A DNA stretch of 64,000 bases from Mobula hypostoma (GCF_963921235.1 NC_086097.1:151096001-151160000), one strand, 5' to 3'. Shown: positions 11,700-60,487, counted from the stretch's first letter. Numbers and translations: made by a program. The notes: a model not told the origin generated them from the sequence alone.

Positions 11700-12841
11700 A
11701 TGTGAGTTCCAATTAAGTGCTTCCAAAGACAGGTAGAGTCTGTAGAGAAGTAGTTCTACTCTCTTGTGACACAGTGCCTCCATAGGGAGTAGAATACTCC
11801 GGTGAAAATGCCTTAGTTTCATTGGACTTTGAAGGAGCATCAGACAAAACAGTAAGACACTGCTGGCTTTGCTGAGCAGATTGGGATGGACTGAAGGAAT
11901 ATTTTGAGGACTGATGAGGTACTGTTGGTACACAAGTTGTTCCACCCTTGGGAAATGGAATGGGATTTGTGTCCTGGGCTGTGGAACCTGGGATCAATTA
12001 CATCACTTTAATAGCCATCAGAACATTCCAATAGGGTTCATAGAGTTATAGAAAAGTGCAGTGTAGAAACAGGCCATCTAATCCGTGCTGAGCCATTTAA
12101 CCTGCCTACTCCCATCGACCTGCAACGGGACCATAGCCCTCCACATCCCTACCATCCATGTACCCATCCAAACTTCCCTTATATCCTCACTTGCACCACT
12201 TGTGCTGGCAGCTCGTTCCACACTCTCACAGTCCTCTGAGTGAATTCAGGTCAAATCTTGGCTTAGTGTATTGAAGTTTTGTTTTCTGAAGCACTTGAAC
12301 CAATGCAGCAGAGCTTCAGAATTTATAAAATCTTCCTTAGGCAGAGAAACTTTGTGAAAATCTGAATCCATACTACTGTAGTAAGGTTCAGGTGTACTGT
12401 TATCTTGATTTCCCAAGACTTGGAAAACGGGTATGATATAGTTTAGACTGCATTGGCAACCTTTATTTTGGCATGGACTTCCTTTCTCAGATTTGGAAGA
12501 AGTGATTGACAAATAAAAAGTTGACTCAGTCTATTTGCAGCCTCCAGAATGCAGTATTGATTGCAATAGAACCAACAAGGGCTCCGAGGACCCGTGTGCC
12601 TTTAATTGAGTGTGTTGTGTTGTGAGATAAGACAGTGGAGTAGTTTGCCTGCAATTAATATTGAAAGAGGATGACCTTTTTGGGCTATGAGCCACCATTT
12701 GTGAAAAGAACAGTGGCAAGATCCTTATTGCGATATTATTCCTTCTGCTTGTGCTCAGTGGGCTTAAATTATCATCTAGTGCCTCAAGAGTTTTGGCAAT
12801 TTTGGATTCTTTAAAAACTTACTTCAATTTTGCAAAACACC
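11700..12841 (-). pseudogene. Large decayed exon (Ser/Thr/Pro-rich) interrupted by a CR1 insertion
   Basis: Acceptor tttttatatttctttttaataag| at 12842-3. One frame runs about 197 codons (12841-12249) with only two internal stops. A second S/P/T-rich ORF at 11713-11997 lies beyond the insertion. Confidence 0.45.
12040..12245 (-). mobile_element. Short CR1 3' tail insertion
   Basis: catagagttatagaaaag tail plus ggcagctcgttccacactctcac; ttca is repeated at both junctions. Confidence 0.85.
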
Positions 12842-13639
12842 CTTATTAAAAAGAAATATAAAAATAGGTCACAGTAGTCTATTTTTAGGTTCGCTTCCTC
12901 ACATTACCATTGCAATCTTTATTTATGAAGTTTACTTTTCCCTCCTGATTTTGCAAGTCATTTTAAGCTACAGTGCCCATTAAGTTCTTCATGAATGGTT
13001 GCTAATAAGGTTAAAGTAAAGCAAAACTTGAAAGTGACACAAATTGCTTGGTAGAAAGGACGTTGTGCATATCTGTGGTCTAAGGGAGTTGCTTGGAGAT
13101 GAAAGTTAGAGACTATTTTCTTAGATGATTATGCCCTAATCTCAGGGGTGCACAGAAACCCCAATACAGCTAGTTTTTGTGGCTCGACTGCATTTTTTGT
13201 AATTTGGTTCTGATGCCCATTCCAAACCTGGAGATAACATTAATAATAAAACTAACCAGCTTTGCTTATCCTTAGCCCATGATATTCAGTCCCAGCATGT
13301 CTAGTCACTGTTCTGTATTCCACTCAGAGTGCTGTTTCGATTCACATGATGTCACCTGGATACAATTTGCATATTTAAAAATAGCTCTCACCAGCTAAAA
13401 AAGAGCAAACTACTGTTCGGAGATTGTGCATTAGTCAGAATGGGCAGATCTCCAGTTTTATTCCAAGTGACACCTCAGCATTATACCAGAGAGAAATAAA
13501 ATCAGGTTTTGAATTAAGAAAGTCAGTGCAGTTTCTTTTAACTGTGAATATGGCAATAAACAAACCTTCTAACTTAACCTGGTAAAGTGTCTATGGGCTG
13601 ACAAAAAGGAGTTGCATAAATGAGTGGAAATGAGTGACG

Positions 13640-14225
13640 TGAAATATTTTAAAAAATGGAAACTATTAGGAGTACTGTATCCAGATTTGGACACCATACT
13701 GGCGAAGAATTCAAGGTCTTAGTGAAATTACTGAAGTGATTTGCTAGAATGCCACCAAGGATGAGACACTCCAGAAAGATGAGAAAATAGCATTGTTCTT
13801 ATTACAAAGGAAATACAAGAGTCTACAGATGCAGTAATCCGGGGCAGCAAACAATGTGCTGGAGGAACTTAGCAGGTCACCCAGCAATTGTGGGAGTAAA
13901 GAGTCTGCTGATGTTATGGGTTGAAAACCTGCATCAACCAATTTGTGGATCAGATGCTCTATAAAGTTTGTCCTCTTAGCTTAAACCAATGCCCTCTTGT
14001 TTTTGACTGCACTGCCATGGAAGAAAATTCTGTGTATCTATCCTATCTATGCCCTTCATAATTTTATATACCTCTATTAGATCACCCCTCAGCCTCCCTC
14101 GCTGGGAGCCCAACCTCTCCGATTTCTCCCCAGAACACAAGTTCTCCATTCCAGCTGAATCTCCTCTGTTTGATAGTTGCTGAGGATACATTTCCATGCT
14201 GTATCTCTCTATGACTCTATGATTA
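13640..14225. mobile_element. Composite of CR1 fragments and a Penelope-derived short element (13810-13940)
   Basis: ORF 13976-14197 RLRGDLIEVYKIMKGIDR (CR1); atgtgctggaggaacttagcaggtca resembles the Penelope terminal arm at 58.5/59.5 kb. Confidence 0.7.
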
Positions 14226-16104
14226 AATGTCTATTCTTGTTATAAGAATTTTGGCAAGAGAGTCAGTGAAAATAAAAGAAAACATTTTTAATGTTATTAT
14301 CTTGAATGGATTCAAAGGATAATGGAAACAGATTTCACAACAATTTCCAAACAGAATTTGGTAATTGCTTTCAGAAGACTGTGGTTCAAGTCCATCCAAC
14401 AACATTGTCTTGAGCAAACAAACTGAGTTGAGTAGGATAGGGATTGTTTATTATTGGAGCTGTGATCATGAGGGAGAACATTAAACTGAGCTCATACTCA
14501 CTCTGCACGTGAATGTAAAAAAAATCCTACTTTGAGAAATGTAAGGGAGATATATCTGCTGTTTTAACAAGATCTGCTGTTTTAACATCCCTCTTATTTA
14601 ACACCACTAAAAGACTTGAATAACTGGAAATAGTTACAGTCTATTATTTTGCATGTTGCGCAAGTTACTGCTGCATTTCCTGTATTACACCAGTGACTGC
14701 TCTTCAGAAGAACTGCTAACTCTGTAAAACACTTAGGACATCCTGAAATCCTGGGAGCTGATGTACTTGCATCTTTCGGTTTCTTACTGTACACCAAAAG
14801 AAAGCATTAACCACATTGAAACAACTAATCACACCAACGTTAGTTACAGTAATGGCTGCCTATGATGCCTGCAAAGTTACTTTTGGGATCTTTGTATGAT
14901 ATCCCTTTGCTGCTTTATTGGATATTTCTGTCTCAGTCAAGATGTAAACAAAGGAAAATCATAAAATCAGTGTATTTGCCTGTTAATATGGATATCAGTT
15001 TTTAGGATTGAAGTGATTACCAGACAATGTTGCTAAATATTTCCGATCACTGTTTAGCAATTTTCAATAAAGGAGAACAAAATAGCATTTTATTACCATA
15101 CTAGCAGAGTATGAGCACAGAGCAATAGAAAGTGTTACCCACTGGGCATGCAAAATCCATGTGTGAAAATCTAATTTTCTAATTTCAAAGAATGGAAAAT
15201 TAGCTCCATTCACTTAATGTGAAAAGGCAAAATTATGCCAGTGGACATATTCAAAATTTCAGTACAAAAATATTCAGACCTCTGGCCAGGTTGGACCTCA
15301 TGTCTAATCCAATACCCAGACACAATTTCAGTAGACAGCGATTATCCTGCAGCAAGGAGTTGTAAACTAATTCCTAGCATGGGTGATTTGACGAGGAAAA
15401 TAAATGAGGAAAATCTGACTATTTAGCCTTTGAAACGTGATGACAGAGAGTAATCTTCAGAGAACATAAAAATCCAAGCAACTCTCCATACATGGTGAAA
15501 GGCAAACGTACAGGTAATGACAGGGTGATTCTTCACATTGAGGGCAGTGAACACATGGTAAGTGTTCTTGATAAGTTATTAGAAAAAAAAACAACCAGAT
15601 AGTTATGAATTATTGGATCTGGACAAAGGAACAAACTTCTGTTAATTGCTTGAGCTACAAAATGTTCATGGTCTTCATAATTTTTGTTGTCTTATTGTGT
15701 TAAGGTTTCAGGAGTTAGTTTGGCATCAAGAGATTTTTGAAAGGAAAACTATCAACTCAGTTGCATATTTCAGATTTCTCCTGATTTGAAAAGATGGTAT
15801 AATGAATGGTTGAATAATTATCACCCACTTTACTCTTCCATAGTAGGAATTGCTACCTCTGTTACAAATGTTGGGTCTATACCAGATTTTCATGAGTTCA
15901 GCATCACCATTCACTCTCGTCAGTGGAGCTTTTCAGGATATTGAGTGTGTCCTTTTTCACAATGAAATTGTGACCCAAGATATTCTATCAATAAGACATA
16001 ATATCGGAAACAAACTGTCAAACTGAAAATTCATGAAATTAGATTTCAGAAGCAGGGTTCAACATGCTTAATCAACCAAACCAGACTGTTAGCATATGTG
16101 ATCA

Positions 16105-19481: not shown

Positions 19482-19537
19482 AGGCTCTCCTTCACTCAAG
19501 GTAGAACACTGGAATTGTTCAAGTGCCTCTTCCTCTG
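19482..19537 (-). pseudogene. Candidate 56-nt exon
   Basis: Acceptor ctagtttgctttcctcag|, reads (A)EEEALEQFQCSTLSEGEP, donor |gttagt. The frame is inherited from the 22928-22973 exon. Confidence 0.4.
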
Positions 19538-19720: not shown

Positions 19721-20393
19721 TGTAGCCCCCCTGGCCAGCCTCAGGGTCACTCAGATCACTGTCGTCTAGGGAAACAGCCCTCGGCCCCGCCAAACTGGGT
19801 AATTAGTTTGTGTGGATGACGTGTGATGTATCCCACCCTGCCCAAATAACAGACAACACACCAGATACGATTAAATGTTTTACAGTTTATGGATATTACT
19901 GGAACTATATAATTAATAGAGAGTAAAATATAAAAGGAAAATAAAAGGCGAAACACTTATCAAAGTTTAATCTCTTTGTGCACAAACAGTTGGAGCTCAG
20001 CACCCTCCTTCTTCACCCTGCGACCCCTCGAACCACCTCAACTGGCCGCCTGGGACCAACAACGGTGGTTGACCAGACGCTCCACAAGAGTCCGTCTCCG
20101 TCTCCTCTCCTCGCCGAACGCCTCGCTCGGGGTCCGACCCCGTTAGCGGACTCACAGCACCTGGTCTATCCTCTGTCTCTCTCTCTCCTGCCTTCTGCCC
20201 CAAAACCACATGCATACAATATCTTCAGATACACCAAAAACATAACAACTATCCCAATTGGTTTGTAGCATCTTCTTATCACAGTCTAACCCAAAACAAG
20301 CTGCTAGCGCAAGAACTTTCTCAGCGTTTAACATAACAAAGAAGCCATTTTAATTAGCCTTCGCAATAACATAAAAGACAAAACCCCCTTACA
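19721..20393 (-). repeat. 3' LTR
   Basis: tgtagccccc...ccccttaca; direct repeat of 21749-22449. Confidence 0.95.
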
Positions 20394-20594
20394 CTCTCCC
20401 CCCGCCAAACAAAGTCATGTCCTCATGACTTCTAAATAACTCGCCAACCAGTCCTGCAGACACACAACACACACATACACAGATAAACACAGTGAAAGTG
20501 CTCCCCAAACAGTGGACCTTACGCCCATCCCATGGGCGCTACATAGGCCAACCTATCTGGGAGCTTCCTAATCCTCCGAGACCTCCGTACCCCC

Positions 20595-21287
20595 TCACCT
20601 AAACCCTAAAGGCTCAGACACTATTAGGGATACCTCGGGCCTGCCTGCCAACTCCTCTCTCACTGAGGTGTCTTCAGCGGTCAACTCCCCTCCCTCGTGG
20701 TAGTTCGGAGCATCTACTAAGAGGGTCCCACCCTCAGCTACTTTCCCCAGGCTGTCCCACCGCTGGATCTCGTTTAAATTCGGTACCGGCTCAAGGCTGC
20801 TACACATATCCTCAGAAGCAACTCGACACGCTGGGTGCCCAGACAATGCCCCCATGAACTCCAGGGTCATTAACCAATCATTGTCTTCTGGATAACTACT
20901 GGCACTGGAACCCAAAATCTCCGGTGCCCTTGTGGTTGTCAAGGGTAAATGCTTCAGACACCAGTTGTAAAACGAACTGTACAACAACTTGACCTGTGCC
21001 CCGGGGTCGAGGATGGCTTTAACATCACTTCCCTCTATCCGTAACGACACCTTGGGGCGTGGTCCCTCTAAGCCTTCAGGAATAGGGTCTTTTCCTTTCG
21101 GAAGTTCATTGGTACATTGCTGGGAACGTGCTTCCCCAGAGACCACAAGCCGTTCCCCCACTGGGCCTCCACTAAGTTTCCCGACACCTCTCTGATCAGC
21201 TGAACAACTGAAGGTGGGGCTGATCCCCTGAAGTGATCCCCCAGGCACTGCAAGCAATTTAGCTGCCCTCCTAGCCAGAGAAGACAC
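20595..21287 (-). pseudogene. Gypsy gag C-terminus and aspartic protease remnant
   Basis: [36 protein letters not shown] has a retropepsin DTG motif mutated to DPG. No RT, RNase H or integrase. Confidence 0.85.
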
Positions 21288-21748
21288 ACTGAAAACCTTC
21301 CTCCCTCTTTCAAATAACGGTGTAAGTGAACCTGACAGCTATAACACCGTCACCAGCCCGCCTACTTAAACTGTCAACCAATCCCTGTCGCTCCCTCAAC
21401 CGAGCACTGCCACTCATCTAACAACTGCGAGATCTGCTCCGCCCACATCTCCGCCCCTCTTGGGGTGGATATTATCCAAACGCCAGGCGGAGCCTGCCAG
21501 AGCTAGAACATTTATTCGCAGACACTACCTCCAAATCAGATGACTCTTTCCACTCTCTCCCAACAGCATAGACAGCCCCGAGTCCCACCTCCAACTCATC
21601 AACGCTAGTCTGAACTCGAACAAAGACCCCACCCACCACGCATGCAGCAATAACCAACAAATAACCCACAGAGACACACATTACTGATTTAAACAGGGCC
21701 ACCACACAGCATACCAGTAGATCCAATCCCGGACAAAAGCCCACACAA

Positions 21749-22449
21749 TGTAGCCCCCCCGGCCACTCTCAGGGTCGCTCGGCTCGCTGTCGTCTAGGGA
21801 AACAGCCCTCGGCCCCACCAAACTGGGTAATTAGTTTGTGTGGATGCTGTGTGACGTACCCCACCCCACCCAAATAACAGACAATACACCAGATACGATT
21901 AAATGCTTTACAGTTTATAGATATTACTGGAACTATATAATTAATAGAGAGTAAAATATAAAAGGAAGATAAATGCACCACACTTATCAAAGTTCAATCT
22001 CTTCGTGCATAAACAGTTGGAGCTCAGGACTCTTCTTCTTCACCCTGCGACCCCTCGAGCCACCTCGACCGGCTGCCTGGGACCAACAACAGTGGTTGAC
22101 CAGACGCTCCACAAGAGTCTGTCTCCGTCTCCTCTCCTCACCGAACGCCTCACTCGGGGTCCGACCCCGTTAGTGGACTCACAGCACCTGGTCCATCCTC
22201 TGTCTCTCTCTCTCCCGCCTTCTGCCCCAAAACTCCGTGCATACAATATCTTCAGACACACCAAAAACGTAACAGCTATCCCAATTGGTTCATAACATCT
22301 TCTTATCACAGTCTAACCCAAAACAAGCTGCTAGCGCAGGAACTTTCTCAGCGTTTAACATAACAAAGAAGCATTCCCAAGTATAACATAACAAAGAAGC
22401 TATTTTAATTAGCCTACGTAGTAACATAAAAGATGAACCCCCCCTTACA
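21749..22449 (-). repeat. 5' LTR
   Basis: Direct repeat of 19721-20393 with an extra copy of taacataacaaagaagc. Confidence 0.95.
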
Positions 22450-22927: not shown

Positions 22928-22973
22928 CAGTTGCAAGTTCTTCTTTTGATGTACTTGTATTTCTTATTAGAAC
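22928..22973 (-). pseudogene. Candidate 46-nt exon
   Basis: Acceptor cctttctttctcacattgtttag|, reads VLIRNTSTSKEELAT, donor CTG|gtaata. Confidence 0.45.
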
Positions 22974-23402: not shown

Positions 23403-23459
23403 CTTTTCAGGATAAATTACCATAGTTAATAAATGTGGTCTTGCAGAATTTCCCATATC
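23403..23459 (-). pseudogene. Candidate 57-nt exon
   Basis: Long pyrimidine tract tcttcttcactttcttacttgttaacag|, reads DMGNSARPHLLTMVIYPEK, donor AAG|gtgagg. Confidence 0.5.
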
Positions 23460-24132: not shown

Positions 24133-24151
24133 TGTGCACTTTCGAACACTT
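24133..24151 (-). pseudogene. Candidate 19-nt microexon
   Basis: actttttctatag|AAGTGTTCGAAAGTGCACA|gtaagt. Confidence 0.4.
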
Positions 24152-24660: not shown

Positions 24661-25154
24661 TGAAAAGAGGAAAAAAAAAAAATACCTGTCCATTTCTTTC
24701 CAATGTCCCACAATATTCTTCATTATTAAGGAACTATGTTTCTCAGAGGACATTTTTGCTGTTATGATTTAACAATTAGCATAAATCAAATGGTGCCCTA
24801 AAATTCACACATATTTTCTTCTGCTTTTCATTATTTCTACACCTTGTGCCAGCTGCGTTACTTATTCAAGTTACTAGTTTGCTCTACTTATGAGAAGCTT
24901 ACTGTCTAAAACGAGTTATGGGGATGATTGGAAGAAATCCAAAGATATCAGTGGCTGCTGAGGTTATGGTGATGTCACAGCAGCCTGCCCCAGAGGGAAC
25001 AATTTGCAGAATCATTTCTGTGGCAGTGTCAAGTTCTCCTGGATCATATTTGAATTTTCTTCAGATTCAGGTATTGAAAGGAGACCAAGCATTTAAGACT
25101 TTTCCAGAAACATCAGAGAATATTGCATGCAGTCCACTGAGCATTAACTTGCAT

Positions 25155-25325
25155 AAGACAATCTGCAGGAAGAATTCACTGAGTCAAACAGCATCTGTGG
25201 GAGGAAAGGAATTGTTGATTCCAGCATCCACAATTCTTTTCCTCCTACGAATGATGCTTGACCCTCTGAGTTTTTCCAGCACATTGTTTCTGGTTCCAGA
25301 TTCCAGCACCTACAGTCTGTCATGC
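25155..25325. mobile_element. Penelope-derived short hairpin element
   Basis: Imperfect inverted arms ctgagtcaaacagcatc / gatgcttgaccctctgagtttttccagca and attccagcacctacag, similar to 59480-59550. Confidence 0.55.
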
Positions 25326-25369
25326 CTTCCTTGTTGAACATTAACTTGCAATCTTTTTTGCAACATTAA

Positions 25370-25622
25370 CTTGCACCTTCCAGACCCAAAACCACTACCA
25401 TCTAGAAGGACGAGAACAGCAGATACCTGGGAACACCACCACTTGGAAATTGCCCTCCATGCAACTCACCATCCTGACTTGGAAACATATCGCCGTTCCT
25501 TCATTGTCGCTGGGTCAGAATCATGGAAGTCCCTCCCTAACAGCACTATCAGGGTATCTATTCCTCTGGGACTGCAGTGGTTCAAGAAAGCAGCTCAAGG
25601 GCAGCTAGGGATGGGCAGTAAA
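25370..25622 (+). mobile_element. LINE 3' end of the CR1/L2 group
   Basis: caccatcctgacttggaaacatatcgccgttccttcattgtcgctgggtcagaatcatgg..ggttcaagaaagcagctca..gggatgggcagtaaa. Confidence 0.6.
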
Positions 25623-25624
25623 TT

Positions 25625-26495
25625 CTTTACTTTTTCAATCTTTTTATTAAGTTTCAAAATTAATAAACGTAACAATAATAGTGATGATACATAGAGATCG
25701 GGATTACAATAATAACAGTTAACATGAACAAGCACAGATTCCAAGTAACAAATACAGTTTAGCCTCCCAATCTCATAGTAACTGACCATGAAAGAGATAT
25801 TTTATAAAGAGAGTAAAAAAAACCCTAAACTAAAAAAATACAACGAAACAAAAAAAAACAAAGCTTGGGCTGTCATATTACATCGGCTAAAATTATTATT
25901 TGTTGTTAACTCTGCTCCTCTATACATGAACATATAGTTACTACAAAGGATTCAGAAAGGGTCGACTTACATCATATGAAAATATTGAATAAATGGCCTC
26001 CAAGTTTCTTCAAATTTAACCGAAGGATCCATAGGTACCGCTCCTAATTTTTTCCAAGTTTAGGCATGCTATTGTTTGGGAAAACCACTGAAATGTAGTG
26101 GGGGGATTAGAATCTTTCCATTTAACTAAAGTGGATCTTCTGGCTATTAATGTAACAAATGCAATTAGACGACAAGCCTATCAAAGTCTATCACTGGTAG
26201 TCCAAACATTGCAGTAATAGGATGAGGTTGTAAATCAATACGCAGAACTACTGAAATAATATCAGAAATATCTTTCCAGTATTTTTCTAGAAGAGGACAA
26301 GACCAGAACATATGTGTCAAGGCAGCTACCTCTGAATTACATCTATCACAAACAGGATTTATGTGGCAGTGAAAGTGAGCTAACTTATCCTTGGACATAT
26401 GAGCCCTATGAAACACCTTAAATTGTATCAAGGCATGTCTGGCACACATTGAGGAAGTATTAACTAATAGAAGAATTTTCTCCCATTTGGGCAAT
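25625..26495 (-). mobile_element. L1-clade LINE 3' end
   Basis: ORF2 C-terminal zinc motif IQFKVFHR..CDRC..LTHMFWSCP..YW, with a T-rich (reverse A-rich) tail at about 25625. Confidence 0.9.
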
Positions 26496-35222: not shown

Positions 35223-35282
35223 ATTTCCCTCAGGACTACACTGCATTTAAGGCATTTTTCTTTGTTGAAAAGTAATAGAAAC
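35223..35282 (-). pseudogene. Candidate 60-nt exon
   Basis: Acceptor aaaatag| (weak tract), reads FLLLFNKEKCLKCSVVLRE, donor AT|gtgagt. Confidence 0.4.
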
Positions 35283-36449: not shown

Positions 36450-36498
36450 CTTGGTTTCACAGCTGCCTCTTTGCACTTTTGTTTCTTTCTTTGAAAGC
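36450..36498 (-). pseudogene. Candidate 49-nt exon
   Basis: Acceptor gtttcattcttgttcag|, reads FQRKKQKCKEAAVKP, donor AG|gtgtct (weak). Confidence 0.35.
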
Positions 36499-40995: not shown

Positions 40996-42188
40996 CAGGG
41001 GTCCCCAACCTTTTTTGCATTGCAGACCGGTTTAATATTGACAATATTCTTGTGGACCAGCCAACCTGGGGGTGGGGGGGGGGCGTGGGGTGTTGCCAAC
41101 AGACAAGAGTCGCAGTCAAATACGTTGGGTTTACTCCGAGAAAGACTACAATGACCATGAAGCCTTGCGCGGGCACCAGTGCGCATGCGTGACGCGTGTA
41201 CGTGCCGATTTTTTTTCTACAAATTGTTTTTGGCAATTCTGTTCGGGGGGGGAGGGGTGTTAATCACGACTGGAATATAGATGATAAGTGGCTAATACAC
41301 TCAATTTCGTTTCTAAAAGGGTTTATCTAACGAATTTAATATTAAACACACAGCCCATATTTTCCTCGCATGAATATGGTGATTCGTCAATTATCAGGGG
41401 AGGACAGGGGAGCTTGAAGTAAGTGTTGAAAGAACTTCCAGTAGAAGTGGTAGAGGCAGGTTCGATATTATCATTTAAAGTTAAATTGGATAAGTATATG
41501 GACAGGAAAGGAATGGAGGGTTATGGGCTGAGTGCAGGGCGGTGGGACTAGGTGAGAGTAGCGTTCGGCATGGACAGAAGGGCAGAGATGGCCCGTTTCT
41601 GTGCTGTAATTGTTATATAGTTATATGGTTATATAAGTAAGTCAATAGCATCATAACATTTTAAGTAACGTTTGGATATTAAACACACAGCCCGTATGAA
41701 CATATAAAATCATTGCAACACACCAATGTCACTGAAGCAGTGGGAGCCCTGGGCTTGTTTCCCTGCAACAAGGCAGTCCCATTGAAGGGTGGTGGGAGAC
41801 GGCGATACTCGAAGGGGGTTCCTTATGTCCAGTCTATTCCGCAATTTGGTTTCGTTGCATTCATTGCGGAGATATGCTGGAAATGGAAGCAACGTTTTCA
41901 GTGCTTTTTGTGGCTATCTCAGGATATTTAGCCTTGACTTTGATCCAGAATGCCGGCAGAGAGTCAAACATACTTTTCAGCCCGCCGTCATGTGCAAGCT
42001 CGAGGAGTTGATCTCCTTCCGGCGCTGACATGAATGATGCGTGCATTCAAGCTCAACAGTGGCAGTGACAGGGAATGAGGAAAGGTGCAGCTGACTAATA
42101 TCGCCAAATCATATCGTTTCCTCGCGGCCCGGGGGCGCACGCTTTGCGGCCCGGTACCAGTCTGCGGCCCGGTGGTTGGGGACCGCTG
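40996..42188 (-). mobile_element. Non-autonomous hAT element, copy 2
   Basis: Same TIRs and internal layout as 27188-28356 in reverse orientation; TSD cacaagaa/cacaagag. Confidence 0.95.
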
Positions 42189-46810: not shown

Positions 46811-46827
46811 TTAACTAACTGTACTGC

Positions 46828-47250: not shown

Positions 47251-47492
47251 GCTGGGAAAGCACTAAACCTTTTAACAGTAATTTTCCTTTCACTGGTAGC
47301 TTATCTGCAGCTATTACCTTCTCGGCAAAGTTTCCATTTCCAGTAAAGTTAGACTGGCATCGCAAAAGCAGCTCTGAGTTGCGTCTGATATTTCCTCCTT
47401 TCCTTACTTTTCAATTACCAGCTTGATTATTGTGGGTCTGTGCATAAATGTGCTCCTCTAGTTTTAAATATTATAATATGGCTAACACTCAC

Positions 47493-47838
47493 AATCCCTC
47501 TTCCCTTTACAAGAAACGTATTTTCCTTTTTCTTCATCTGCCACATATTTCTCCAGTTTGTTTGTATTTCTTTGTCATCTTGTGATTCTTATCAATTTTC
47601 CTTATAATTCATAATTACAGCGTTTAGAGTTCTCCTCAGCTCTGAAGTCCCAATCACTGAAGGAAAGTTCAATTTAGTTTTATGGAGTTATGGATAAACA
47701 AATTAATTAATCAAACATAAGTTCTGGTGAAAGAACTATAAAGTATAAATTCACCTTCAGTTGTTTATTTTGAATATCCATTCCATTGTGGGAGTACAGT
47801 GTGTGTCGCTGCTGGGTTTCTGTCCCAGATCTTCCATG
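47493..47838 (-). pseudogene. Two candidate exons (47755-47838, 84 nt; 47493-47656, 164 nt)
   Basis: tattctggtttcag|...AAG|gtgaat and gaactttccttcag|...T|gtgagt, separated by a 98-nt intron; three in-frame stops in the chained frame. Confidence 0.4.
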
Positions 47839-48051
47839 CTGAAACCAGAATACATTTACAACTGATACTGTGACCAGATTTCTAGCCCTTGGTCTAATAT
47901 GAGCAATGATTTCTAGCCAACTCATCCTCCAAGTTCTGATTAATCCTATTGATTCAACATTATTTACATGAATTGTTTTAGGAGGTATCATGTCATGTGC
48001 ACTAATGAATGTTGATATTATCCATGTTCCTTTATTTATTTCCATTTTAAG

Positions 48052-48430
48052 GTATAAGAGCAGAATTAGGCCAATTGGCCTATTGAGCCTGCTCCGCTAT
48101 TCCATCATGGCTAATTTATTATCACTCTCAACTCCATTCTCCCGCATTCTCTCTGGAACATAACCTTTGACGCCCTGATTGATAAACAACCTATCAACCT
48201 CTGTTTTAAATATGCTGAATGACTTGGCCTCCATCACCATCTGTGGCAATGAATTCCACAGATTCACCACCCTCTGGTGAGAGAAATTCCTTCTCACCTC
48301 TCTTCCAAATGGATGTCCCTCTATTCTGAGGCTGTGCCCTCTGGCCATAGACCCACCCCCTGTAGGAAACATCCTCTCCATATCCACTCTGTTTAGGCTT
48401 TTCAATGTTCAATAGGTTTCAATGAGATTC
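48052..48430 (-). mobile_element. CR1 3' fragment
   Basis: ORF 48097-48405 RGHSLRIEG..QRVVNLWNSLP. Confidence 0.9.
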
Positions 48431-48804
48431 CGCATCCCCACCTTCCGTACGTTTGTCTGCCAATCCTTTCTCCCTCTTACTACCTCTCCAGTGTCGTTTT
48501 TCTGGTGGCGCAATATCCACTCTCGCCTCTTTTAATAAATAATAATAATATTCATCATAATAATAAGTAATTTATTGATCCTGAGTGTGAAATACTTTTG
48601 TTACAGCAGCAACATTTAAAAACACTTAGCAGTGTGCAGACTTAACTAATAATAATGTACAGAATAATACTTTACACAATAATAATTTACCAATGTGCAG
48701 TAATAATGTATGAAATAATAAAGCAGAGACTATTGTACAAGATGTGTGTTCTCTTGTTGCACCTACTATATATCTGAAAAAAATTGGTATCCTTTTTAAT
48801 ATTA

Positions 48805-49433
48805 TTAGATTATGAAGACACGTAGTCCTCTTTTATTGTCATTTAGTAATGCATGCATTAAGAAATGATACATTATTTCCTCCGGTGTGATATCACAAAA
48901 CAAAGGACAGACCAAGACTGAAAAAACTGACAAAACCACATAATTATAACATATAGTTACAACAGTGCAACAATACCATAACTTGATGAAGAAGTCCATG
49001 AGCACAGTAAAGTTCAAGGTTTCTCAAATGTCCCACATCTCACGCAGAGGGGAGAAGGAAGAAAAATTCTCCCTGCCATGCCGACCACAGTCCGACTCTG
49101 AGTCATCTGAAAACTTCGAGCTCTGATCAGCTCTCCGACACCAAGTATTGAGCGCCATCTCTGTCCGAACGATTCGACCTGAACCTCGGTCGCCAACAGC
49201 AGGCAAAGCTGGGGATTTTGAGGCCTATCTTCCGAAAGATTCCCGACCACAGAGTAACGACAGCAGCGAACGAGCGTTTCAGAAATTTCTCCAGATGTTC
49301 CTCTGTGCTTTCACGTCCATTCTCCATCAAATCAGAATTGTCCACGGCCCCTATTTAACAGATATGATATCATTTTTCACCGGAGGGCTGCGCACACGCA
49401 GGCGCACTGCTCTCTCTCCTCCCTCCTTCCCTT
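48805..49433 (-). mobile_element. CpG-rich non-coding retroposon with LINE-like tail
   Basis: Reverse tail aaatgacaataaaagagg..cataatctaat, GC-rich head, no recognisable protein. Confidence 0.5.
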
Positions 49434-49595
49434 TCAGCTAGCTAGCTTACCTTCATATTTCATATTTTCCCTCTTTATGGTTTTTTTAGTTGATTTCTGT
49501 TGATTTTTAAAAGCTTCCCAATCCTCTAACTTCCCACTAATTTTTGCTATATTATACTGCACGTCCTCTCCTTTGCTTTTGTTCTGCCTTTGACT

Positions 49596-50725
49596 TCCCT
49601 TGCATCTCCGGAACCTGGGCCTTAGCACTCAGATCTGCAGCTGGATCTTCAACTTCCTCACAGACAGGACCCAGGGTGTAAAAATAGGGGACAAGCTCTC
49701 CTCTGCAATCACTCTGAGCACCGGTGCCCCACTAGGCTGTGTACTCAGCCCCCTGCTGTACTCTCTGTACACCCATGATTGTGTAGCCAAGTTTCCATCG
49801 AATTCAATATATAAGTTTACTGATGACACCACAATTGTAGGCCGTATCTTGGGTAATGATGAGTTTGACTACAGAGAGGAAATTAAGAACCTGGTGGCAT
49901 GGTGCGAAGACAATAACCTATCCCTCAACATCAGCAAGACAAAGGAATTGGTTGTTGACTTCAGAAGGAGTAGTGGACCGCACGACCCAATTTACATCAG
50001 TGGTGCACAAGTGAAACAGGTCAAAAGCTTTAAGTTCCTCGGGGTCAATATCACAAATTACCTGAGTTGGTCCAACCAAGCAGAGTTCACTGCCAAGAAG
50101 GCCCACCAGAGCCTTTAATACCTGAGAAAACTAAAGAAATTTGGCCTGTCCCCTAAAACACTCACTAATTTTTACAGATGCACTGTAGAAAGCATTCTTC
50201 TGGAGTGCATCACAACCTGGCACGGAAGTTGTCCTGTCCCAGACCGGAAGAAGCCGCAGAAGATCGTGAACACAGCACAGCACATCACACAAACCAATCT
50301 TCCATCCTTGGACTCACTTTACACCACACGCTGTCAGAGCAGTGCTGCCAGGATAATCAAGGACATAACCCACCCAGCCAACACACTTTTCGTCCTTCTT
50401 CCCTCCGGGAGAAGGCTTTGGAGCTTGAAGACTCGTACGGCCAGATTTGGGAACAGCTTCTTTCCAACTGTGATAAGACTGCTGAACGGATCCTGACCTG
50501 GATCTAGGCTGTACCCTCCAAATATCCAGACCTGCCTCTCGGTTTTTTTGCACTACCTTACTTTCCCTTTTCTATTTTCTATTTTTGATTTATAATTTAA
50601 ATTTTTAATATTTACTATCGATTTGTACTCCAGGGAGCACGAAGAGAAGAATCAAATATTGCTGTGATGATTGTACGCTCCAGTATCAATTGTTTGGCGA
50701 CAATAAAGTATAAAGTATAAAGTAT
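49596..50725 (+). mobile_element. Rex/Babar-type LINE, 5'-truncated (RT and 3' UTR)
   Basis: [44 protein letters not shown], with a (aaagtat)n tail. Confidence 0.93.
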
Positions 50726-51890
50726 CTGAATGTATCTATCCTGCATCTTCCGAATTGCTCCCAGAAACTCCAGCTACTGCTGCTTTGCTGTCATCCCTGC
50801 TAGCGTCCCCTTCCAATCAAATTTGGCCAACTCCTCTCCCGAGCTTCTGTAATTTCCTTTATTCCACTATTTAATTCTGATATATCTGGCATTAGCTTCT
50901 CCCTCTCAAACTACAGGGTGAATTCTATCATTTTATGATCATTGACTTCCAAATGTTCCTTTACTTTAAGCTCCTGAATCAAATCTGCCTCATTACACAG
51001 TACCCAATCCAGAATTGCCTTTCCCCTGGTGGGCTCAACCACAAGCTGCTCTAAAAAGCCATCTCATCAACATTCTACAAATGACCTCTCTTGGGATCCA
51101 GCACCAATAATTTTCCCAATCTACCGGCATATTTAAATCACCCAAAACTGCTGTAACATGCTTTATTACATGCATTTTCTATTTCCCATTGCAATTTGTA
51201 GCCCACATCCTGACTAAGGTTCAGAAGCCTGTATATAACTCCCATAAGTGTCTTTTTACCCTTGCAGGTTCTTCCCTCTACCCACAAGGATTCTACATCT
51301 TCTGATCTTATGCCATCTCTTTCTGAGGATTTAATTTAATTTTGACCATCAGAGCTACCCCACTCCCTCTCTTTACCTGCCTTCCTTTCAATCAAGATGC
51401 ATCCTTGGATATTAAGTTCCCAACTATATTATTCATATTACCTTGGAGATCCGGCTCTTCAGCTTCTTCCCTAACTCCCTAAACTCACTGTACAGGACTT
51501 CTTCCCCCTTTCTACCGAAGTCATTGGTGCCAATGTGCACCCTGACCTCTGACTGTTCACCCTCCCTTTCAAGAATCTTCTGCAGCTGGTCGGAGACCTC
51601 CTGAACCCCAGCACCTAGGAGGCAACGTACCATCCTGGCTTCTCTTTCACGGCCACCGAACCTGCTGTCCGTCCCTCTGACTGTCGAGTTTCCTATCACT
51701 ACTTCTCTGCCTGACTTTACTCTTCCCTGCTAAGCCTCAGAGGCAGTTTCAGTGCCACTGGCCTGGCTGCTGCTGCTGTGCCCTGATAGGCCATCCTCCC
51801 CCTGCACTGTTCAAAGAGATGTACTTGTTGCTGAGGGAAATGGCCACAGGGGGACCCTGCACTGGCTGCTTACTCCCCTCACTTCTCCTG
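50726..51890 (-). mobile_element. CR1 APE and ORF1 esterase fragments (also 49434-49595)
   Basis: IGNSTVRGTD..CLLGAGV..VHIGTNDFG is an SGNH esterase; APE-like sequence spans 50.9-51.4 kb. Confidence 0.85.
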
Positions 51891-51904
51891 GTGAGGTCGG
51901 TCAA

Positions 51905-52275
51905 GCCGGGACTTTATTCTTTAGCGTGTAAGAAACTGAGAGGTTATCTTATAGAGGTGCATAAAATGATGAGGAACATAGATATGGTGAATACATCCAG
52001 TCTTTTCCTAGAGATGTGGAATCAAGAACCAGAGGGCATAAGTGAGAAGGGAAAAGGTTAAGAGGGGCTTGAAAGGCAACTTTATTTTTTACACAAAGGG
52101 TGGTATCTATGTTGAATCAGCTGTCAGAGGAAGTGTTTGAGGCAGGCACAATAACAACTTTTGAAAGACTGTTGGACGGATACATGGATTGGAAGGGTTT
52201 AGAAGGCTGAGGACCAAACACTGGCAAATAGGACATAGATAGGGCATATATCAGTGCAGTATAGCTGTATGACTC
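51905..52275 (+). mobile_element. CR1 3' fragment
   Basis: GLYSL..KLRGYLIEVHKMMR and tail ctgtatgactct. Confidence 0.8.
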
Positions 52276-52339
52276 TTTCTGTTCAAACCACTCTATAAAG
52301 ATGATAAATCTAAACTATCTTTCAGAAATCTGTGTTAAC

Positions 52340-52608
52340 CTGCAGTGAAGCCTATATTTTGCCGTCTCATATTACAGACAGATCGTGCACACAGAAGAGT
52401 TAGTTGCGCTCTTTAATTAAGGCCAAATGTGGCATGAGAAAGATGGTGTTTGGGGTATGATAACCACGTGCAGGATAGCAGGCATTTTAAAATATAAATG
52501 ATCAATTCCGCAATGCTTTCTTTTTCTGTTTGTAATAACTATAGCTTTCAAACAATGTCCATTTTGCGTGACAATAATTTACAATGGAATTGCAGACAGT
52601 ACAATTAT
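52340..52608 (-). pseudogene. Candidate 269-nt exon
   Basis: Acceptor ccctttcctgatcatggcttcag|, reads IIVLSAIPL*IIVTQNGHCLK..MPAILHVVIIPQTP with three stops, donor AG|gttaac (weak). Confidence 0.35.
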
Positions 52609-53402
52609 CTGAAGCCATGATCAGGAAAGGGCAAAATTTGCAAGATTTATTTATTTATATTAATGGATAGGCAAAAGATTCACAAGTTGATAAAATGAGA
52701 ACATTAAAATAGTATGTAAAAATAAAAGGCGAGTATTTGATGTGCATGCACAAATGCAGTTTCTAAAACATCCAATCATTTTACAGTGAAGTTTTATTTC
52801 TAATAGGGCTCATTTGCGGGGAGACAGCAGCAGGTTTTCTGGCTGACCTTCCCCTCCACAGCCAAAGAATACTGAAAATGACACAGGTTCTCCTGGGAGA
52901 TGGTGGAAGCAGTATTGATTCATTCAAATGCAAATTAGATAGATTCTCTCAGAAAGTAACATTTGGGATACAGTATATGAATAATTTGAAAAATGACTTG
53001 TGGTAATATAACATGTTTGGGTGGAAAAGGTGACTTTGATTCTATTGCTCTGACTAGCGTCTTCTTGTTTCTTCACTGTGTAGTGTAGTTTACTTGTTTA
53101 AGACTGGAGATGGCGGTATGATTAATCAACAATTCCATTATCATTATATAGTTTGAAGACCAATATAGTAAAAGCCAAACAGGATCAACATAAATGTTTT
53201 ACATTCCACTCTTCCCATACAAATCAGGCTCAACTCTAATGAATTTGACCGCACCCATATTAATATTTTAACAAATAAAGAACACAGCACAGGAACAGGC
53301 CCTTCAGCTCACAACACCTGCACCAACTATGGTGCCAGTCTGAACCAATACCATCTGCCTGAACAAAGACTAAATCTCTTTATTTTTTGCCTTTTCATAC
53401 AA

Positions 53403-54040
53403 ACCATAAGACATAGGAGCAGAATTGGGCTACTTGGCCCTTTAAGTCTGCTTCACCATTCAACCATGGCTGATTTATCTTCCCTCTCAATCCATTCTCC
53501 TGCCTTCTCCCCATAACCTTTGACATCCTTACTAATTAAGAACCTATCAACCTCCGCTTTAAATATACCTAATAACTTGGCATCCACTACCATCTGTGGT
53601 GATGAATTTCACAGATTCATCACTCTCTGGCTAAAGAAATTCCTCCTGATTTCTTTTCTAAAGGATGTCCTTCTGTTCTGAGGCTGTGATCTATGGTTTC
53701 TCCCATTACTGGAAATGTCCTCCCCACATCCACTCTATCTAGACCTTTCAATATTCAGTAGGTTTCAATGAGATGCCCATCATTCTTCTAAGCCCCAGTG
53801 AGTAGAGGCCCAGAGTCATTATATGCTTCTCATATCTTAACCCTTTCATTCCATGTATCATTCTTGTAAATCTCCCATGGACCCTCACAACACTCTAAAT
53901 GTGGTCTAAACAATGCCTTACAAATCCTCATCATTATATCCTTGCTTTTATATACTGCTTGTCTCGCAATGAATGTTAACATTGCATTTATCTTCCTTAC
54001 TATTGACTCAACCTGCCAGTTAAACTGTAGTCCCTGCAAA
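53403..54040 (-). mobile_element. CR1 3' fragment
   Basis: QVESIVRKINAML..KALFRPHLEC; tail accataagacataggagcag. Confidence 0.9.
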
Positions 54041-54312
54041 CTATTTTCTCACATGCTCATGGAATCCTCTTTTGATTTATTTCACATTTATCCACATTAC
54101 TGAGTAATATAGTGTACCCGGATGAAATCTATCTTATCACAGGGAGAACCTGAAAACTCGATACGGACGTAACCAAAGGGCAGAACTGAAGTCAGATCCC
54201 TGGAGCTAACATTTTCAGCAATATGCTGCCCTTAATCTCAGTGAAAGCTTTGACTGAATGTTTAGTTCCTCTCCTATTGTTTCCTTCCTTGACTCAGAAT
54301 TCTTTTCTTTAC

Positions 54313-54814
54313 CTGATTGTTAAACATCTTTAATAAACTTCAAAGGTCCCATATAAAAATAAGGCTCTTCTGGGTATGTTCAAGTGAAATCGTCTGCTTT
54401 TCAACATTCCATAGAACCTGGCGTTCACCTGAAGAAGCTGAAGATTGCACTAAATATATACCCATAAAACTCTATCTACATGAGAACATTAGTACTGATC
54501 TAGCTTCTTAAATTTGGAACTTCTAGGCGTAGATTTTAACTCTCATCATTAATGTTTGTTTTTTTGTTACATATGGAATTCACAAGGATATAATGTGAGG
54601 CATGCTTAGGAAGCTGCCGAGTTGGTTGCATTTATACAAAAATAGGATTGCATTAACTTGCCATCCATGAGAAAGTTCCTTGCATGGCATTAAATCCAAT
54701 TTCCATTATCCAGTGGGTAAAACTGTACCTGTGAATCAGCTATGGGGCTCTGCAGGACTAGTAGAAGAACACGAACTCTACACACTGTCTAGCAAACTCC
54801 AAACTTCTAATGAA
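54313..54814 (-). pseudogene. Two candidate exons (54729-54814, 86 nt; 54313-54428, 116 nt)
   Basis: cctttcttctatattgcag|..CAG|gtacag and cttcagcttcttcag|..CAG|gtaaag; the chained frame reads SLEVWSLLDSV*SSCSSTSPAEPHS*FTGERQVLWNVEKQTISLEHTQKSLIFIWDL*SLLKMFNNQ. Confidence 0.5.
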
Positions 54815-55227
54815 CTGCAATATAGAAGAAAGGCATGTTCTCACATTCAATGAAATAATGGCTGATCCATATCTATCAGCTTTGAATTCCAAACAGATAA
54901 AAAAAAATCTATCAACCTGTTTCCTTTTTTAATTAAACTGGCCTTGCAGCTTTATGACTCAGAAAATTTCCAATTTCTGCTCCCTTTTGGCAAAAGAAGT
55001 ATTTTCTGACATCATCTCTAAATGGTATAATTTTGACATGATTTAAAGAGTACCGACAAAAAAAATCATTGACCTGTGATGTTAACTTTCTCCATAGGTG
55101 TTGTCAGACCTGAGCTTTCAGCATTTTTTTACTGTAATTTCAGATATCCAGCACTTGCAGGATTTTGTTTCTGTGTTAACATGCACCCATGTTCTGGATT
55201 TGCCTGGCAATAGTTTATCTCAATCTA

Positions 55228-55503
55228 ACATTTGGGAACAGCTTCCTTCCAACTGTGATAAGACTGCTGAACGGACCCTGACCCGGATCTGGGCCGTACC
55301 CTCCAAATATCCGGACCTGCTTCTCTGTTTTTTTGCACTACCTTACTTTCCATTTTTCTATTTTCTATTTATGATTTATAATTAAAATTTTTAATATTTA
55401 CTATCAATTTGTAATCCAGGGAGCAGGAAGCACAGAATCAAATATCGCTGTGATGATTGTACGATCTAGTATCAATTGTTTAGTGACAATAAAGTATAAA
55501 GTA
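55228..55503 (+). mobile_element. Short copy of the Rex/Babar 3' end seen at 50445-50725
   Basis: Near-identical atttgggaacagcttc..ctgctgaacgga..gacaataaagtataaagta. Confidence 0.92.
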
Positions 55504-56394
55504 CATGCCAAATTTTTAAATTGTTTTAAGGACTTTATTTAGATCACCTCTTAATCTGACATACAAAACAAATTTTTGGAAGTATATCAATACATTACTG
55601 TGTGCTGTGTGCTCAAATTCCAAACAGGGATTATCACCAACTTCATTTGGCTTACAAGGGACAGTTACACCTACATTTTTTTATAATTTAAAACTGAGAG
55701 GTTTTTTTTAAACAACAGTAATAAATAGTTGAAAAATAGTCAAACAGAGAAACAGAAAGACAGATTTACAAAATGGCCATTGAAATTAAACTGTTCCAAT
55801 GCCTTAGCAAGAAGGCTCAACTTGCTCACTTGCAATGTTGAATTATAATTGATGCATCATTATATTATTTTCAAAGTGATTTCATACAAGGGTATATACC
55901 AGTCATTTCTCTAGGGAAATATTCTCAATTGTCCACCATAACCTTTGCAAGAGATCACCCAAGTAAAACCCAAGTAAAAGTATAGATCTGCTAAAGATTA
56001 GTTGATGTCAGTCTTGCTGCTGAATTAAATGGTTTATCCCACTGGTTTATCCAGAAAATTAAAAGGAAAAAATATATTTTTTTCAGAAATAATGACTTTT
56101 GATTGAAGGAGTCTATAATCCTCTAAAGTCATTGTAAAAGATCCCATTGCACAATTTAAACATGGGTACAGTGGTGCTGCCTAACGTCTAAGTTCAGTCC
56201 TGACCTCCAGTGCTACCTTTGTGGAGTTTGCATGTACAGTATGCATATTTAGAGGCAATGTCAGAAAATACTTCTTTTGCCAAAGGGCAGCAAAATTTGG
56301 TAATTTTGCCTGCTTTCCTCTGAAATCCTAATGATATGCTTTTTGGGAGGTTAATTCACTGCTGTAGATTGTGTAGGTGAGTGATGAAATCAGA

Positions 56395-57480
56395 GTTATA
56401 CAGCACAGAAACAGGACCTACAACGTAACTTATCCATGCTGACCAAGCTACCTCCCTGAGTTAGTCTTCATTAATCTGCCCATGTCCTGCTAAACATTTC
56501 ATATCCATGCTCCCTCCCAAATGCCTATTAAATATTGTAATTGTACCTGCCTCTACCATTTCCTCTGGCAGCTCATTCCATTTATCCAGCACTTTCTGTG
56601 AGAAAAAAAACTACCCCTCAGATTTCCTATGAATCTTTCTTCTCTCACTTTAATCCTAAGACCCCAGTAATATATCCATCAGCACTGGGAAAGTGGCTGA
56701 GCTCATCCGCTTTATTTATACCCCTCATGATTTTACAAGACTCTATATGGTCACCCCATCAGCCTTGCTAAGGTCAGGGAAAGCAGCCTATCTAGTCTCT
56801 CCTTGTAACTCAAGCTGTCCAGACTCAGCAACAACTTTGTCTACATCATCTTTAGTTTAGTCATATCTTTCCTATGATATGGTGACCAGAACTGCACACA
56901 ATATTCCAAATGCAGTCTCACCAGCATCTTGCACTGCTGTTACATAATGTCCCATTCTTGCACTCCAAGGCTCCTCTGATTAAAGTAAGCATACGACATC
57001 TATACTTCATAACTTTGCATATGCCTGTCAACACTTTCAGGGGACTATGTACTATCTCAAGATCTCCCTGTTCTACAGCGCTCCACAGCGTTCTGTCTTT
57101 TACAGTGTATGACCTGCTCAAGCATAAATTCTCACTGAACTTATCTGAATTAAATTCCATTTGCCCTTTCTTTGTCCGCTTTCTCAGTTGAACTAGATCC
57201 TATATACCAAGGCAACCTTCTTCACAATCCACCACTCAACAAATTTTGGTGCCATCTGTGAACTAACCATGCCACCTACATTCTGGACCAAAGCTTTAAT
57301 ATATATGACAACGACATGCTCCAGTATCGATCCTTGTGCACCTCACTATTCACAGGGCTCCAAACTGAGGAAAAAAATTCTCTATTAGCAATCTCTAATT
57401 CCTTCCACAAGCCAATTTTCTATCGAATTGGCTAGATGACCATGGATCCCATGTGATCTCACCCTTCTGGACCCGTCTAG
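56395..57480 (-). mobile_element. Old CR1 RT-to-tail fragment, preceded by a SINE fragment at 56165-56390
   Basis: MEFNSDK..VEQGDLEIVHSPLKV and tail agagttatacagcacagaaacagg. Confidence 0.8.
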
Positions 57481-57615
57481 AAGGCATGTAGACAACTAGA
57501 TCTGTGGGGTGTTGATGGCAAATATGGGAAGACTAGGCTACAGGAAAAAAACTTCCATGCTGTAAGGAATTATGGTAAAGGAAGTTCTCCGAATTCACAC
57601 CAAGAAATGTCTCAC

Positions 57616-57900
57616 CGAACAATGGCTATTGAGTTTATTTCAGTACTTTTTGTGGAAGTTTCCTTCATTAGAACAATGATTTCACTTTCAAGGTACTTAA
57701 TGGCTGTCAAAGTGCTTTGGCATACCAAGCCAAATGTTTTCTGTACCAGTTGAAATATTAATATTGTTTTCCTTTCTACAGGTGTTCCCTGACTTTCCTT
57801 CATTTATTCATATCATCACTTCTCACTCTTAAAAGTCTGCAGATTTATGTTACCCTATTCATTTCTGTCACTGAAAGACTCCAGTTCCCTTTAAGATGCC
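57616..57900 (-). pseudogene. Candidate 285-nt exon
   Basis: Acceptor tgatcattttgtatatttcag|, donor CG|gtgaga. The last 62 codons are open (MKESQGTP..NSIAIVR) and the first third has five stops. Confidence 0.45.
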
Positions 57901-58604
57901 CTGAAATATACAAAATGATCAGCAAATAAAATAAGAAAATAACTGATTTGTACATAAACTGAAGGTCATCCTTCGTAATCCTGCAACAGCTTTGCAACTT
58001 AATCTGTGATATCCTTTAAGAACAAATAGAACATTTCAAAAACTGCACAGGATTATGTTTGTTTGGCATTCTCCTAAACATAAATCCAAGAGGATTTACA
58101 GTTTGCCCTGCAGGATACATTCTAAAAATGCTTAAAACTTCTTCTAGTTGATTGTAGCATATGTTAACCTTTCAATAGCTACAGTAAATTGAATGCAACA
58201 TTTCTACGAGAGAGAATTATCCTTGAGCGCCTGATGTAGCCAAATAAGTGATGAGTGTCAAAGATCGGCAGGGGGTGGGTAGGGTAGGGGTGGGAGAAGT
58301 ATAATTTACATATGTTTGTAGATTTTACACAGAATTAAGAAGAAGTCTTTGGTAGGCTAACTGATCACTTGTCCTGAGTATTGAGATGAGGGATAGAATA
58401 AAGAAAGTTGGTGAAAATGTTGGGAGATTAAAATACGTAGTTCCTGGTAAGATTGTTGAAGTGCTGGAATGGCCTACTCCACATTGTATCTCAATAGGTA
58501 AATAACTATCAAGCACACATGTTTCATCAATCTTACCAGGAGCTACACACATAAAAATTGCTGGTGAACACAGCAGGCCAGGCAGCATCTATAGGAAGAG
58601 GTAC

Positions 58605-58640
58605 AGTCTACGTTTCGGGCCGAGACCCTCCGTCAGGACT
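58605..58640 (-). ncRNA. Hammerhead ribozyme motif, mutated copy
   Basis: AGUC-CUGACGG-aGGGUCUCGGCCC-GAAAC-GUA-GACU: A9 is replaced by G and the cleavage triplet is GUA. Confidence 0.75.
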
Positions 58641-59427
58641 AACTGAAGGAAGAGATAGTAAGAGATTTGAAAATGGGAGGGGGAGGGGAAATCCGAAATG
58701 ATAGGAGAAGACAGGAGGGGGAGGGATCTGGAAAGTTGATTGGCAAAGGGAATATGAGAGGATCATGGGATGGGAGGCCTAGGGAGAAAGAAGGGGGGAG
58801 AGGGGAAGCCCAGAGGATGGGCAAGGAGTATAGTGAGAGGGACAGAGGGAGAAAAAGGAGACGGGAGAGAATGAATGAATGAATACATAAATAAATTACG
58901 GATGGGGTACAAAGGGAAGGTGGGGCATTATTGGAAGTTAGAGAAGTCAATGTTCATGCCATCAGGTTGGAGGCTACCCAGACGGAATATAAGGTGTTGT
59001 TCCTCCAACCTGAGTGTGGCGTCATCTTTACAGTAGAGGAGGCCGTGGATAGACATATCAGAATGGGAATGGGACGTGGAATTAAAATGTGTGCCCTCTG
59101 GGAGATCCTGCTTTCTCATGCATGACCATTGACTTCTCTAACTTCCGTTAATGCCCCAACTTCCCTTCGTACCTCATCCGTTATCTATTCATTTATTTTT
59201 TTTCTCTCTCCTTTTTCTCCCTCTGTCCCTCTCACTATACTCCTTGCCCATCCTCTGGGCTTCCGTCCCCGCCCTACTTTCTCCCTAGGCCTCCCATCCC
59301 ATGATCCTCTCACATTCCCTTTGCCAATCAACTTTCCAGATCCCTCCCCCTCCTGTCTTCTCCTATCATTTCGGATCTCCCCCTCCCCCTCCCACTTTCA
59401 AATCTCTTACTATCTCTTCTTTCAGTT

Positions 59428-59463
59428 AGTCCTGACGAAGGGTCCCGGCCCGAAACGTCGACT
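59428..59463 (+). ncRNA. Minimal type I hammerhead ribozyme, intact core
   Basis: AGUC-CUGACGA-aGGGUCCCGGCCC-GAAAC-GUC-GACU: stem I AGUC/GACU, stem II GGGU/GCCC, palindromic ACGU stem III. Confidence 0.88.
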
Positions 59464-59839
59464 GTACCTCTTCCTATAGATGCTGCCTGGCCTGCTGCAT
59501 TCACCAGCAATTTTTATGTGTGTTGCTTGAAATTCCAGCATCTGCAGACCTCCTCTTGTTTACCAGGAGCTATATATTTTATTCTCCCAACATTTTCATC
59601 AACTCTTTCTTTATTCTACCCCTCATCTCTACATTGGGGACAAGTGATCAATTAAACTACCAAAGAATTCTTCTTAATTCTGTGTAAAATCTACAAACAT
59701 GTAAATTATACTTCTCCCACCCTTATCCCCTCCTCCCGATCTTTGATACTCATCACTTCTTTGGCCACATCAGGCGTTCAAGGATAATTCTCTCTCATAG
59801 AAATATTGCATTCAATTTACTGTAGCTATTGAAATAGCT

Positions 59840-60026
59840 AGGATCCTAGCCTAATCATGGGAAAATTTGCAATGGCCAATTAAACTACTAACCTATACTT
59901 TGGACTGTGGGAAGAATGTACTATTTGGATGTGGAGAATGTACTCTTCTAGGCAGCAGCTGGAATTGAACCTGATTCACCTGTACTGTAAAGTGTTGTGC
60001 TAACCACTACGTTTCCATGCCGCCCT
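59840..60026 (-). mobile_element. V-SINE-type fragment
   Basis: ctttggactgtgggaag..ggaattgaacc..gctaaccactac. Confidence 0.65.
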
Positions 60027-60371
60027 AATGGACTCAGTAGTTCGAAAGGTCTTTATCAATGCTGTACCTTTTGCTGACTCCCGGTAAAGTTGCTCTACAC
60101 TAAATAAGCCCCAGAAATGGTTGAATGACATTTGTTTTTACTGAAGTACATTTGATGGCCAGGATTCAGAAAGAAATTCTCTCCACTTTGTCAAATTGTC
60201 CTGTGAGATTTACATTTGCCACAGGAGGTGTATAGAGATTGTGATCCTTGATATCAACAGCCCCTTGCTTCTTGCATGCAATCACCACTTAGTCACTCTT
60301 CGGTGATCGCATACATACATAGGGGGTTAATATTTTTGAGCCACCGATACTTTTGATGTCAGATTGTTAAC

Positions 60372-60487
60372 CTCAAATGTTAATATTTTTTCCCGTTCCA
60401 CAAATCCTTCCCAATTTGCTGAGTATTCCAGTATTTACTGCATTAATAAAAATTGGACCTCTCCATAAGAGGAAGGTGTATTGTGGA
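60372..60487 (-). pseudogene. Candidate 116-nt exon
   Basis: Acceptor atgtcagcttttgcag|, reads HNTPSSYGEVQFLLMQ*ILEYSANWEGFVEREKILTFE, donor GAG|gttaac. Its phase does not join directly to 57900. Confidence 0.3.

Follow-up and report, generated by a model that had tools for sequence, protein, structure and literature searches.

A candidate decayed, intron-containing gene on the minus strand of repeat-rich Mobula hypostoma DNA

Unitary pseudogenes, as summarised by Zhang et al. 2010 (PMC2864566), are intron-containing remains of genes that were inactivated at their original site, whether by stops, by frameshifts or by truncation. In that summary, assignment to the class requires that a functional ortholog exists, that synteny is conserved and that the genome has no functional copy (PMC2864566). 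Duplicated (unprocessed) pseudogenes and mosaic segmental duplications likewise leave an exon-intron structure with disabling mutations. Here we examine a window, that is, the whole stretch of 64,000 nucleotides of Mobula hypostoma DNA that was analysed, in which an initial annotation had proposed a decayed, intron-containing gene. We judge the chances to be about even that a multi-exon protein-coding gene once lay on the minus strand here and has decayed into an unprocessed pseudogene. The exon chain as listed is likely to be right only in part.

On the minus strand, each of the 13 proposed segments has an AG before it and a GT after it, and an AG also stands directly before position 12841, where a large last exon had been placed (Table 1). 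They also lie in non-repeat DNA, as had been claimed: none overlaps with the within-window repeats found by self-BLAST, and a permissive re-test of 12 segments returned only matches of 28-30 nt, which is chance level. The splice sites were scored in bits, with vertebrate frequency tables. Regarding single segments, the top-scoring frame of exon A is out of phase with the chain frame according to the frame scores, and exon B has its 5 stops within the first 32 codons, with 62 open codons at the 3' side. The acceptor of exon I (35282) scores -4.3 bits, at the 70th percentile, and does not surpass a random AG. When both sites are required to reach at least 4 bits, the minus strand has 1051 AG..GT segments and the plus strand 1012; by themselves, the splice sites are no more than chance.

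Table 1. Positions of the putative exons and of the parts of the terminal block within the window.
Feature	Position	Strand	Observations
Candidate exon A	60372..60487	-	116 nt; AG/GT; weak donor, 2.4 bits
Candidate exon B	57616..57900	-	285 nt; splice sites 7.2/7.3 bits; rank 2 in blind exon ranking
Candidate exon C	54729..54814	-	86 nt; 2 stops; AG/GT and splice scoring
Candidate exon D	54313..54428	-	116 nt; 1 stop; strong splice sites, 9.5/8.0 bits
Candidate exon E	52340..52608	-	269 nt; 3 stops; weak splice sites, 2.7/3.5 bits
Candidate exon F	47755..47838	-	84 nt; 1 stop; AG/GT, splice scoring, blind ranking
Candidate exon G	47493..47656	-	164 nt; 2 stops; AG/GT, splice and frame scores, blind ranking
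Candidate exon H	36450..36498	-	49 nt; open; AG/GT, splice scoring, blind ranking
Candidate exon I	35223..35282	-	60 nt; open; AG/GT, splice scoring
Candidate micro-exon J	24133..24151	-	19 nt; AG/GT, splice scoring
Candidate exon K	23403..23459	-	57 nt; open; donor 11.2 bits, the strongest of the set; rank 1 in blind ranking
Candidate exon L	22928..22973	-	46 nt; open; AG/GT, splice scoring, blind ranking
Candidate exon M	19482..19537	-	56 nt; open; AG/GT, splice scoring, blind ranking
Part N1	12249..12841	-	frame 12839-12249, 197 codons, 2 stops
Repeat fragment	12039..12244	-	between N1 and N2; like the 3' end of a LINE
Part N2	11713..11997	-	frame 11997-11716, 94 codons, open, Ser/Thr/Pro/Gln-rich, ends with TAA

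The reading frame gives more than the splice sites do. From 57900 to 19482 the segments do join in one frame, with 14 stops in 430 codons compared with 32 and 28 in the other two frames, and the stops are confined to the upstream part as had been stated: the first six segments carry 5, 2, 1, 3, 1 and 2 of them, and the last six are stop-free. H to M give 123 stop-free codons when the count begins inside G. When the phases were scrambled, the hand-picked segments had 20.3+-2.2 stops instead of 14 (P 0.005), and random non-repeat segments had 20.5+-3.4 against the 14 of the hand-picked ones (P 0.044). Therefore, the phase coherence is modestly above chance, at a P of about 0.005-0.04, values that are uncorrected for the picking of the segments by eye. 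The chain frame is also the best of the three in 8 of 12 segments, a frameshift-aware path of protein-likeness held to it almost throughout B-M, and the protein-likeness of the hand-picked chain exceeds that of 298 of 300 random (null) chains (P 0.007). Codon periodicity is absent from the joined chain (p 0.21).

Stops and frameshifts arise at similar rates under neutral decay, and 14 stops together with no frameshift are unlikely under such decay. This pattern is atypical, which implies that frameshifts would have been part of the true history and that some of the listed boundaries are likely wrong. The membership of each single segment is putative. Furthermore, the 14 stops and the repeat fragment of the terminal block amount to coding disruptions only on the condition that the frame used to code for protein.

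The surroundings of the splice sites point in the same direction as the frame. We compared the 14 acceptors and 13 donors with score-matched controls (302 and 297 sites, respectively). At the picked sites, with p values that are again uncorrected for the hand-picking, upstream T was higher (p 0.004), G was depleted (p 0.009), the AG-free zone (p 0.03) and a loose branch motif (p 0.025) were more marked, the interior was purine-rich (p 0.007) and downstream T was raised (p 0.015). The upstream pyrimidine content was borderline (p 0.053), and for a strict branch motif the picked sites equalled the score-matched controls (p 0.34). The context beyond the core splice motif leans exon-like at the picked sites.

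The large exon that had been proposed from 12841 does begin after an AG, as noted above, but it is not one uninterrupted block, because a repeat fragment at about 12039-12244 splits it into N1 and N2. The fragment matches four other places of the window at 59-66% (best E 1e-11), and we take it to be of the kind labelled CR1. The chain frame at 12841 stops after 5 codons; the long N1 frame is another one, and M and N1 are thus out of phase. A frame as stop-poor as that of N1 occurs once more, in 21 kb of other non-repeat DNA. Codon periodicity is absent from N1 (p 0.9). N2, in turn, has a codon periodicity with a chi2 of 22.6 (p about 0.001). A disordered-protein model ranks it first of all segments in 22.7 kb, with a score of 24.8, although this model was chosen after N2 had been seen; the best score of the null was 13.0+-1.7, with a maximum of 17.3 in 60 simulations. 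Under a general proteome model N2 is sixth and not top, and there are 7 other open frames of at least 94 codons in 21 kb. Within these limits, N2 is the best coding-like signal of the locus. N1 and N2 are adjacent, on the same strand and directly behind an acceptor.

The strongest alternative is that the chain came about by a chance choice among AG..GT segments, in old non-coding DNA that lies between retroelements, which we hold to be quite possible, if somewhat short of an even chance. The by-eye boundaries would then produce the coherence, and N2 would be of low complexity or the remnant of an old mobile element, a version of the chance reading to which we give the same credence. The about 1000 comparable segments per strand speak for it, as do two blind tests, which were run to address the hand-selection of the segments. 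A blind phase-aware chain finder gave a best score of 116 on the minus strand and 143 on the plus strand, with a null of 118+-19, and under a stiffer penalty the values were 41 and 66, with a null of 46+-12. Phase-consistent blind chains of 31 segments form on both strands, and simulated DNA scores equally. A blind exon ranker, the composition weights of which had been set after the results of the context test were known, found 7 of the 12 eligible segments with exact boundaries among the 20 best of the minus strand; the sum of its top 12 was 215 on the minus strand and 225 on the plus strand, with a simulation null of 200+-10. The plus strand thus scores at least as well as the minus strand. 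In non-repeat DNA, strong donors are equally common on both strands, and strong acceptors are slightly commoner on the plus strand. The putative exon-intron structure has canonical boundaries and a favourable context, yet in the blind tests it does not rise above the plus-strand control. Against chance stand the features outside the core motif, which favour the picked sites, the periodicity and composition of N2, and the position of N1 and N2 side by side on one strand right behind an acceptor.

Chance is also favoured by the outcome of the searches for a homolog by Pfam, by word-seeded search and by phmmer. The initial annotation had asked for collinear protein homology, and no search, each made with single exons in single frames, returned such homology. 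Word-seeded protein searches gave nothing at E<=10 among 354 candidates for N1 (proteins of 346-2000 aa), 44 for exon B (715-2275 aa) and 34 for exons E and G (157-2000 aa), and phmmer with N1 against 1.84 billion representatives gave nothing at E<=0.001; these two large protein searches covered queries other than N2. Pfam had no match for any exon frame tested, and the best PDB match of nine queries (E 0.18) was inside an intron. In the ESM Atlas, the open part of exon B gave a CheW-like match (0.88), which has the level of a lead only, and N2 gave nothing. AlphaFold2, given the 62 open codons of exon B but no alignment, returned one long helix, which is uninformative. Metagenome scans confirmed none of 78 pattern matches for N1 and none of 284 for N2.

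Several candidates were discarded. Weak Pfam matches (E 0.0087-0.12) are under the curated cut-offs and outside the proposed exons, and weak PDB matches (E 0.18-2, for instance TLR2 TIR and IL-17RB) are at chance level across nine queries. By eye we noted what we took to be likenesses to kinase, RhoGEF/PH, RasGAP, RhoGAP, WD40 and RING motifs, which are mutually contradictory; those to RhoGEF/PH, RasGAP, RhoGAP, WD40 and RING have no Pfam or PDB support. A protein kinase pseudogene was rejected as well: with profiles built from 107 and 24 kinases, the best hmmsearch match had an E of 0.66 and lay outside the chain, and the frameshift-aware kinase score was 10.7 for exon E (null 10.0+-1.2) and 14.4 for the chain (null 12.2+-1.2).

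As single exons and single frames were used, the searches have little sensitivity for sequence that has decayed heavily or been frameshifted. They count mainly against a close, annotated ortholog and less against a fossil that is old and frameshifted. No flanking host gene was recognised in the Pfam-scanned non-repeat blocks of the window. There are papers on gene loss in cartilaginous fish, and at the level of their abstracts none is tied to this locus.

These searches also bear on a second alternative, a patchwork of exon pieces imported by segmental duplication or as gene fragments, with a functional parent elsewhere and nothing lost; the loss of phase from M to N1 would be in keeping with it, but a recent copy of an annotated parent should have surfaced in the protein searches, and we regard this explanation as very unlikely.

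As for transcription, no RNA run containing 12255-12850 was found; the 6 runs listed, all of guessed type, contained next to none of its words. In the contigs of 4 of these 6 runs on 47400-58100, the bins of exons B-E and G have a depth of 0-11 and the repeats a depth of thousands; among the 15 contig joints listed for this region (1953 others), none links two proposed exons. Contig depth and joints are evidence neither for nor against expression. Ongoing transcription and splicing here, whether into a lncRNA or from a short gene that evolves fast and consists of the stop-free exons H-M, is highly improbable in our estimation: all GT and AG dinucleotides are intact and the 123 codons counted from within G are free of stops, but the intact dinucleotides carry no weight because they were the picking criterion, the H-M frame ends 5 codons into the terminal block, and Rfam (4227 families) gives no match.

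Regarding its setting, the window is repeat-rich DNA of vertebrate type, with LINE endonuclease, reverse-transcriptase and Gypsy-type domains (Pfam). A long LINE at 60595-64000 (plus strand), presumably a CR1, keeps remnants of an endonuclease (PF03372, E 9e-18) and a reverse transcriptase (PF00078, E 8e-19), and is preceded by a 105-nt tandem duplication (60595-60789). At 58170-59834 there is a long inverted repeat with four pairs of arms, which measure 96-148 nt and are 89-95% complementary, the innermost being 458 nt apart. Inverted repeat copies of about 1.2 kb, 84-94% alike in pieces, occur at 27188-28360 and 40992-42188, about 13 kb apart. Direct repeats of about 510 nt at 19721-20232 and 21749-22259 are 90-92% alike and 2028 nt apart, and between them lies a minus-strand frame of 247 codons that weakly matches an aspartyl protease (E 0.11); the pair (19721-22259) looks like an internally deleted LTR retroelement. 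Gypsy-type remnants at 29591-31862 (plus strand) comprise a reverse transcriptase (E 6e-5) and a Tf2-1-like SH3 domain (E 2e-13).

Three further frames or segments were recorded. The second-strongest codon periodicity of the window is at 8441-8740, which has no Pfam match in six frames and which we take to resemble an old non-LTR retroelement. A 304-codon frame with 2 stops at about 24777-25690 (plus strand) runs apparently across repeat pieces and has no significant Pfam match. At 740-1219 (plus strand) there is a 159-codon open frame with no Pfam match, which to our eye resembles the end of the protein of a site-specific non-LTR retrotransposon.

Returning to the decayed gene, which we favour, this proposal of the initial annotation is plausible and is weakly supported by the frame coherence and the exon/intron context. 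Its further suggestions, a lineage-specific loss or survival as a lncRNA, are unsupported speculation; the former needs an intact ortholog, and none was found. The gene may have encoded a protein with an upstream domain and, behind it, a tail of roughly 290 residues, rich in Ser/Thr/Pro and probably disordered. The 5' end of the gene would be expected past 60487, at the LINE that takes up the end of the window. After losing constraint it would have accumulated stops and probably frameshifts, the latter masked by the single-frame reading; a LINE fragment may have entered the last exon while retroelements filled the introns, so that the gene would have been disabled in place. Such decay in place with retroelement insertion is a well-known mechanism.

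It is doubtful, though conceivable, that an ancient gene of cartilaginous fish or vertebrates, with a long Ser/Thr/Pro-rich tail, was lost in this lineage and left its fossil here. We would be equally hesitant to see in such a fossil the undocumented loss of a 'dark' family that has no annotated protein relative in the databases. If a collinear ortholog exists, the locus would add one more gene-loss event to cartilaginous-fish evolution, the value of which depends wholly on the gene. For now, the case mainly illustrates that, in repeat-rich vertebrate DNA, AG..GT chains picked by hand cannot be distinguished from chance unless comparative data are added.

Compared with the known classes, the candidate would resemble unitary pseudogenes in its stops and in the repeat insertion within the putative coding sequence. 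However, unitary pseudogenes are defined against a functional ortholog, whereas the candidate had no ortholog match in the searches run. It differs from duplicated pseudogenes in that it has neither a parent match nor a second copy of its segments within the window. If real, the locus would work like a unitary or a duplicated pseudogene.
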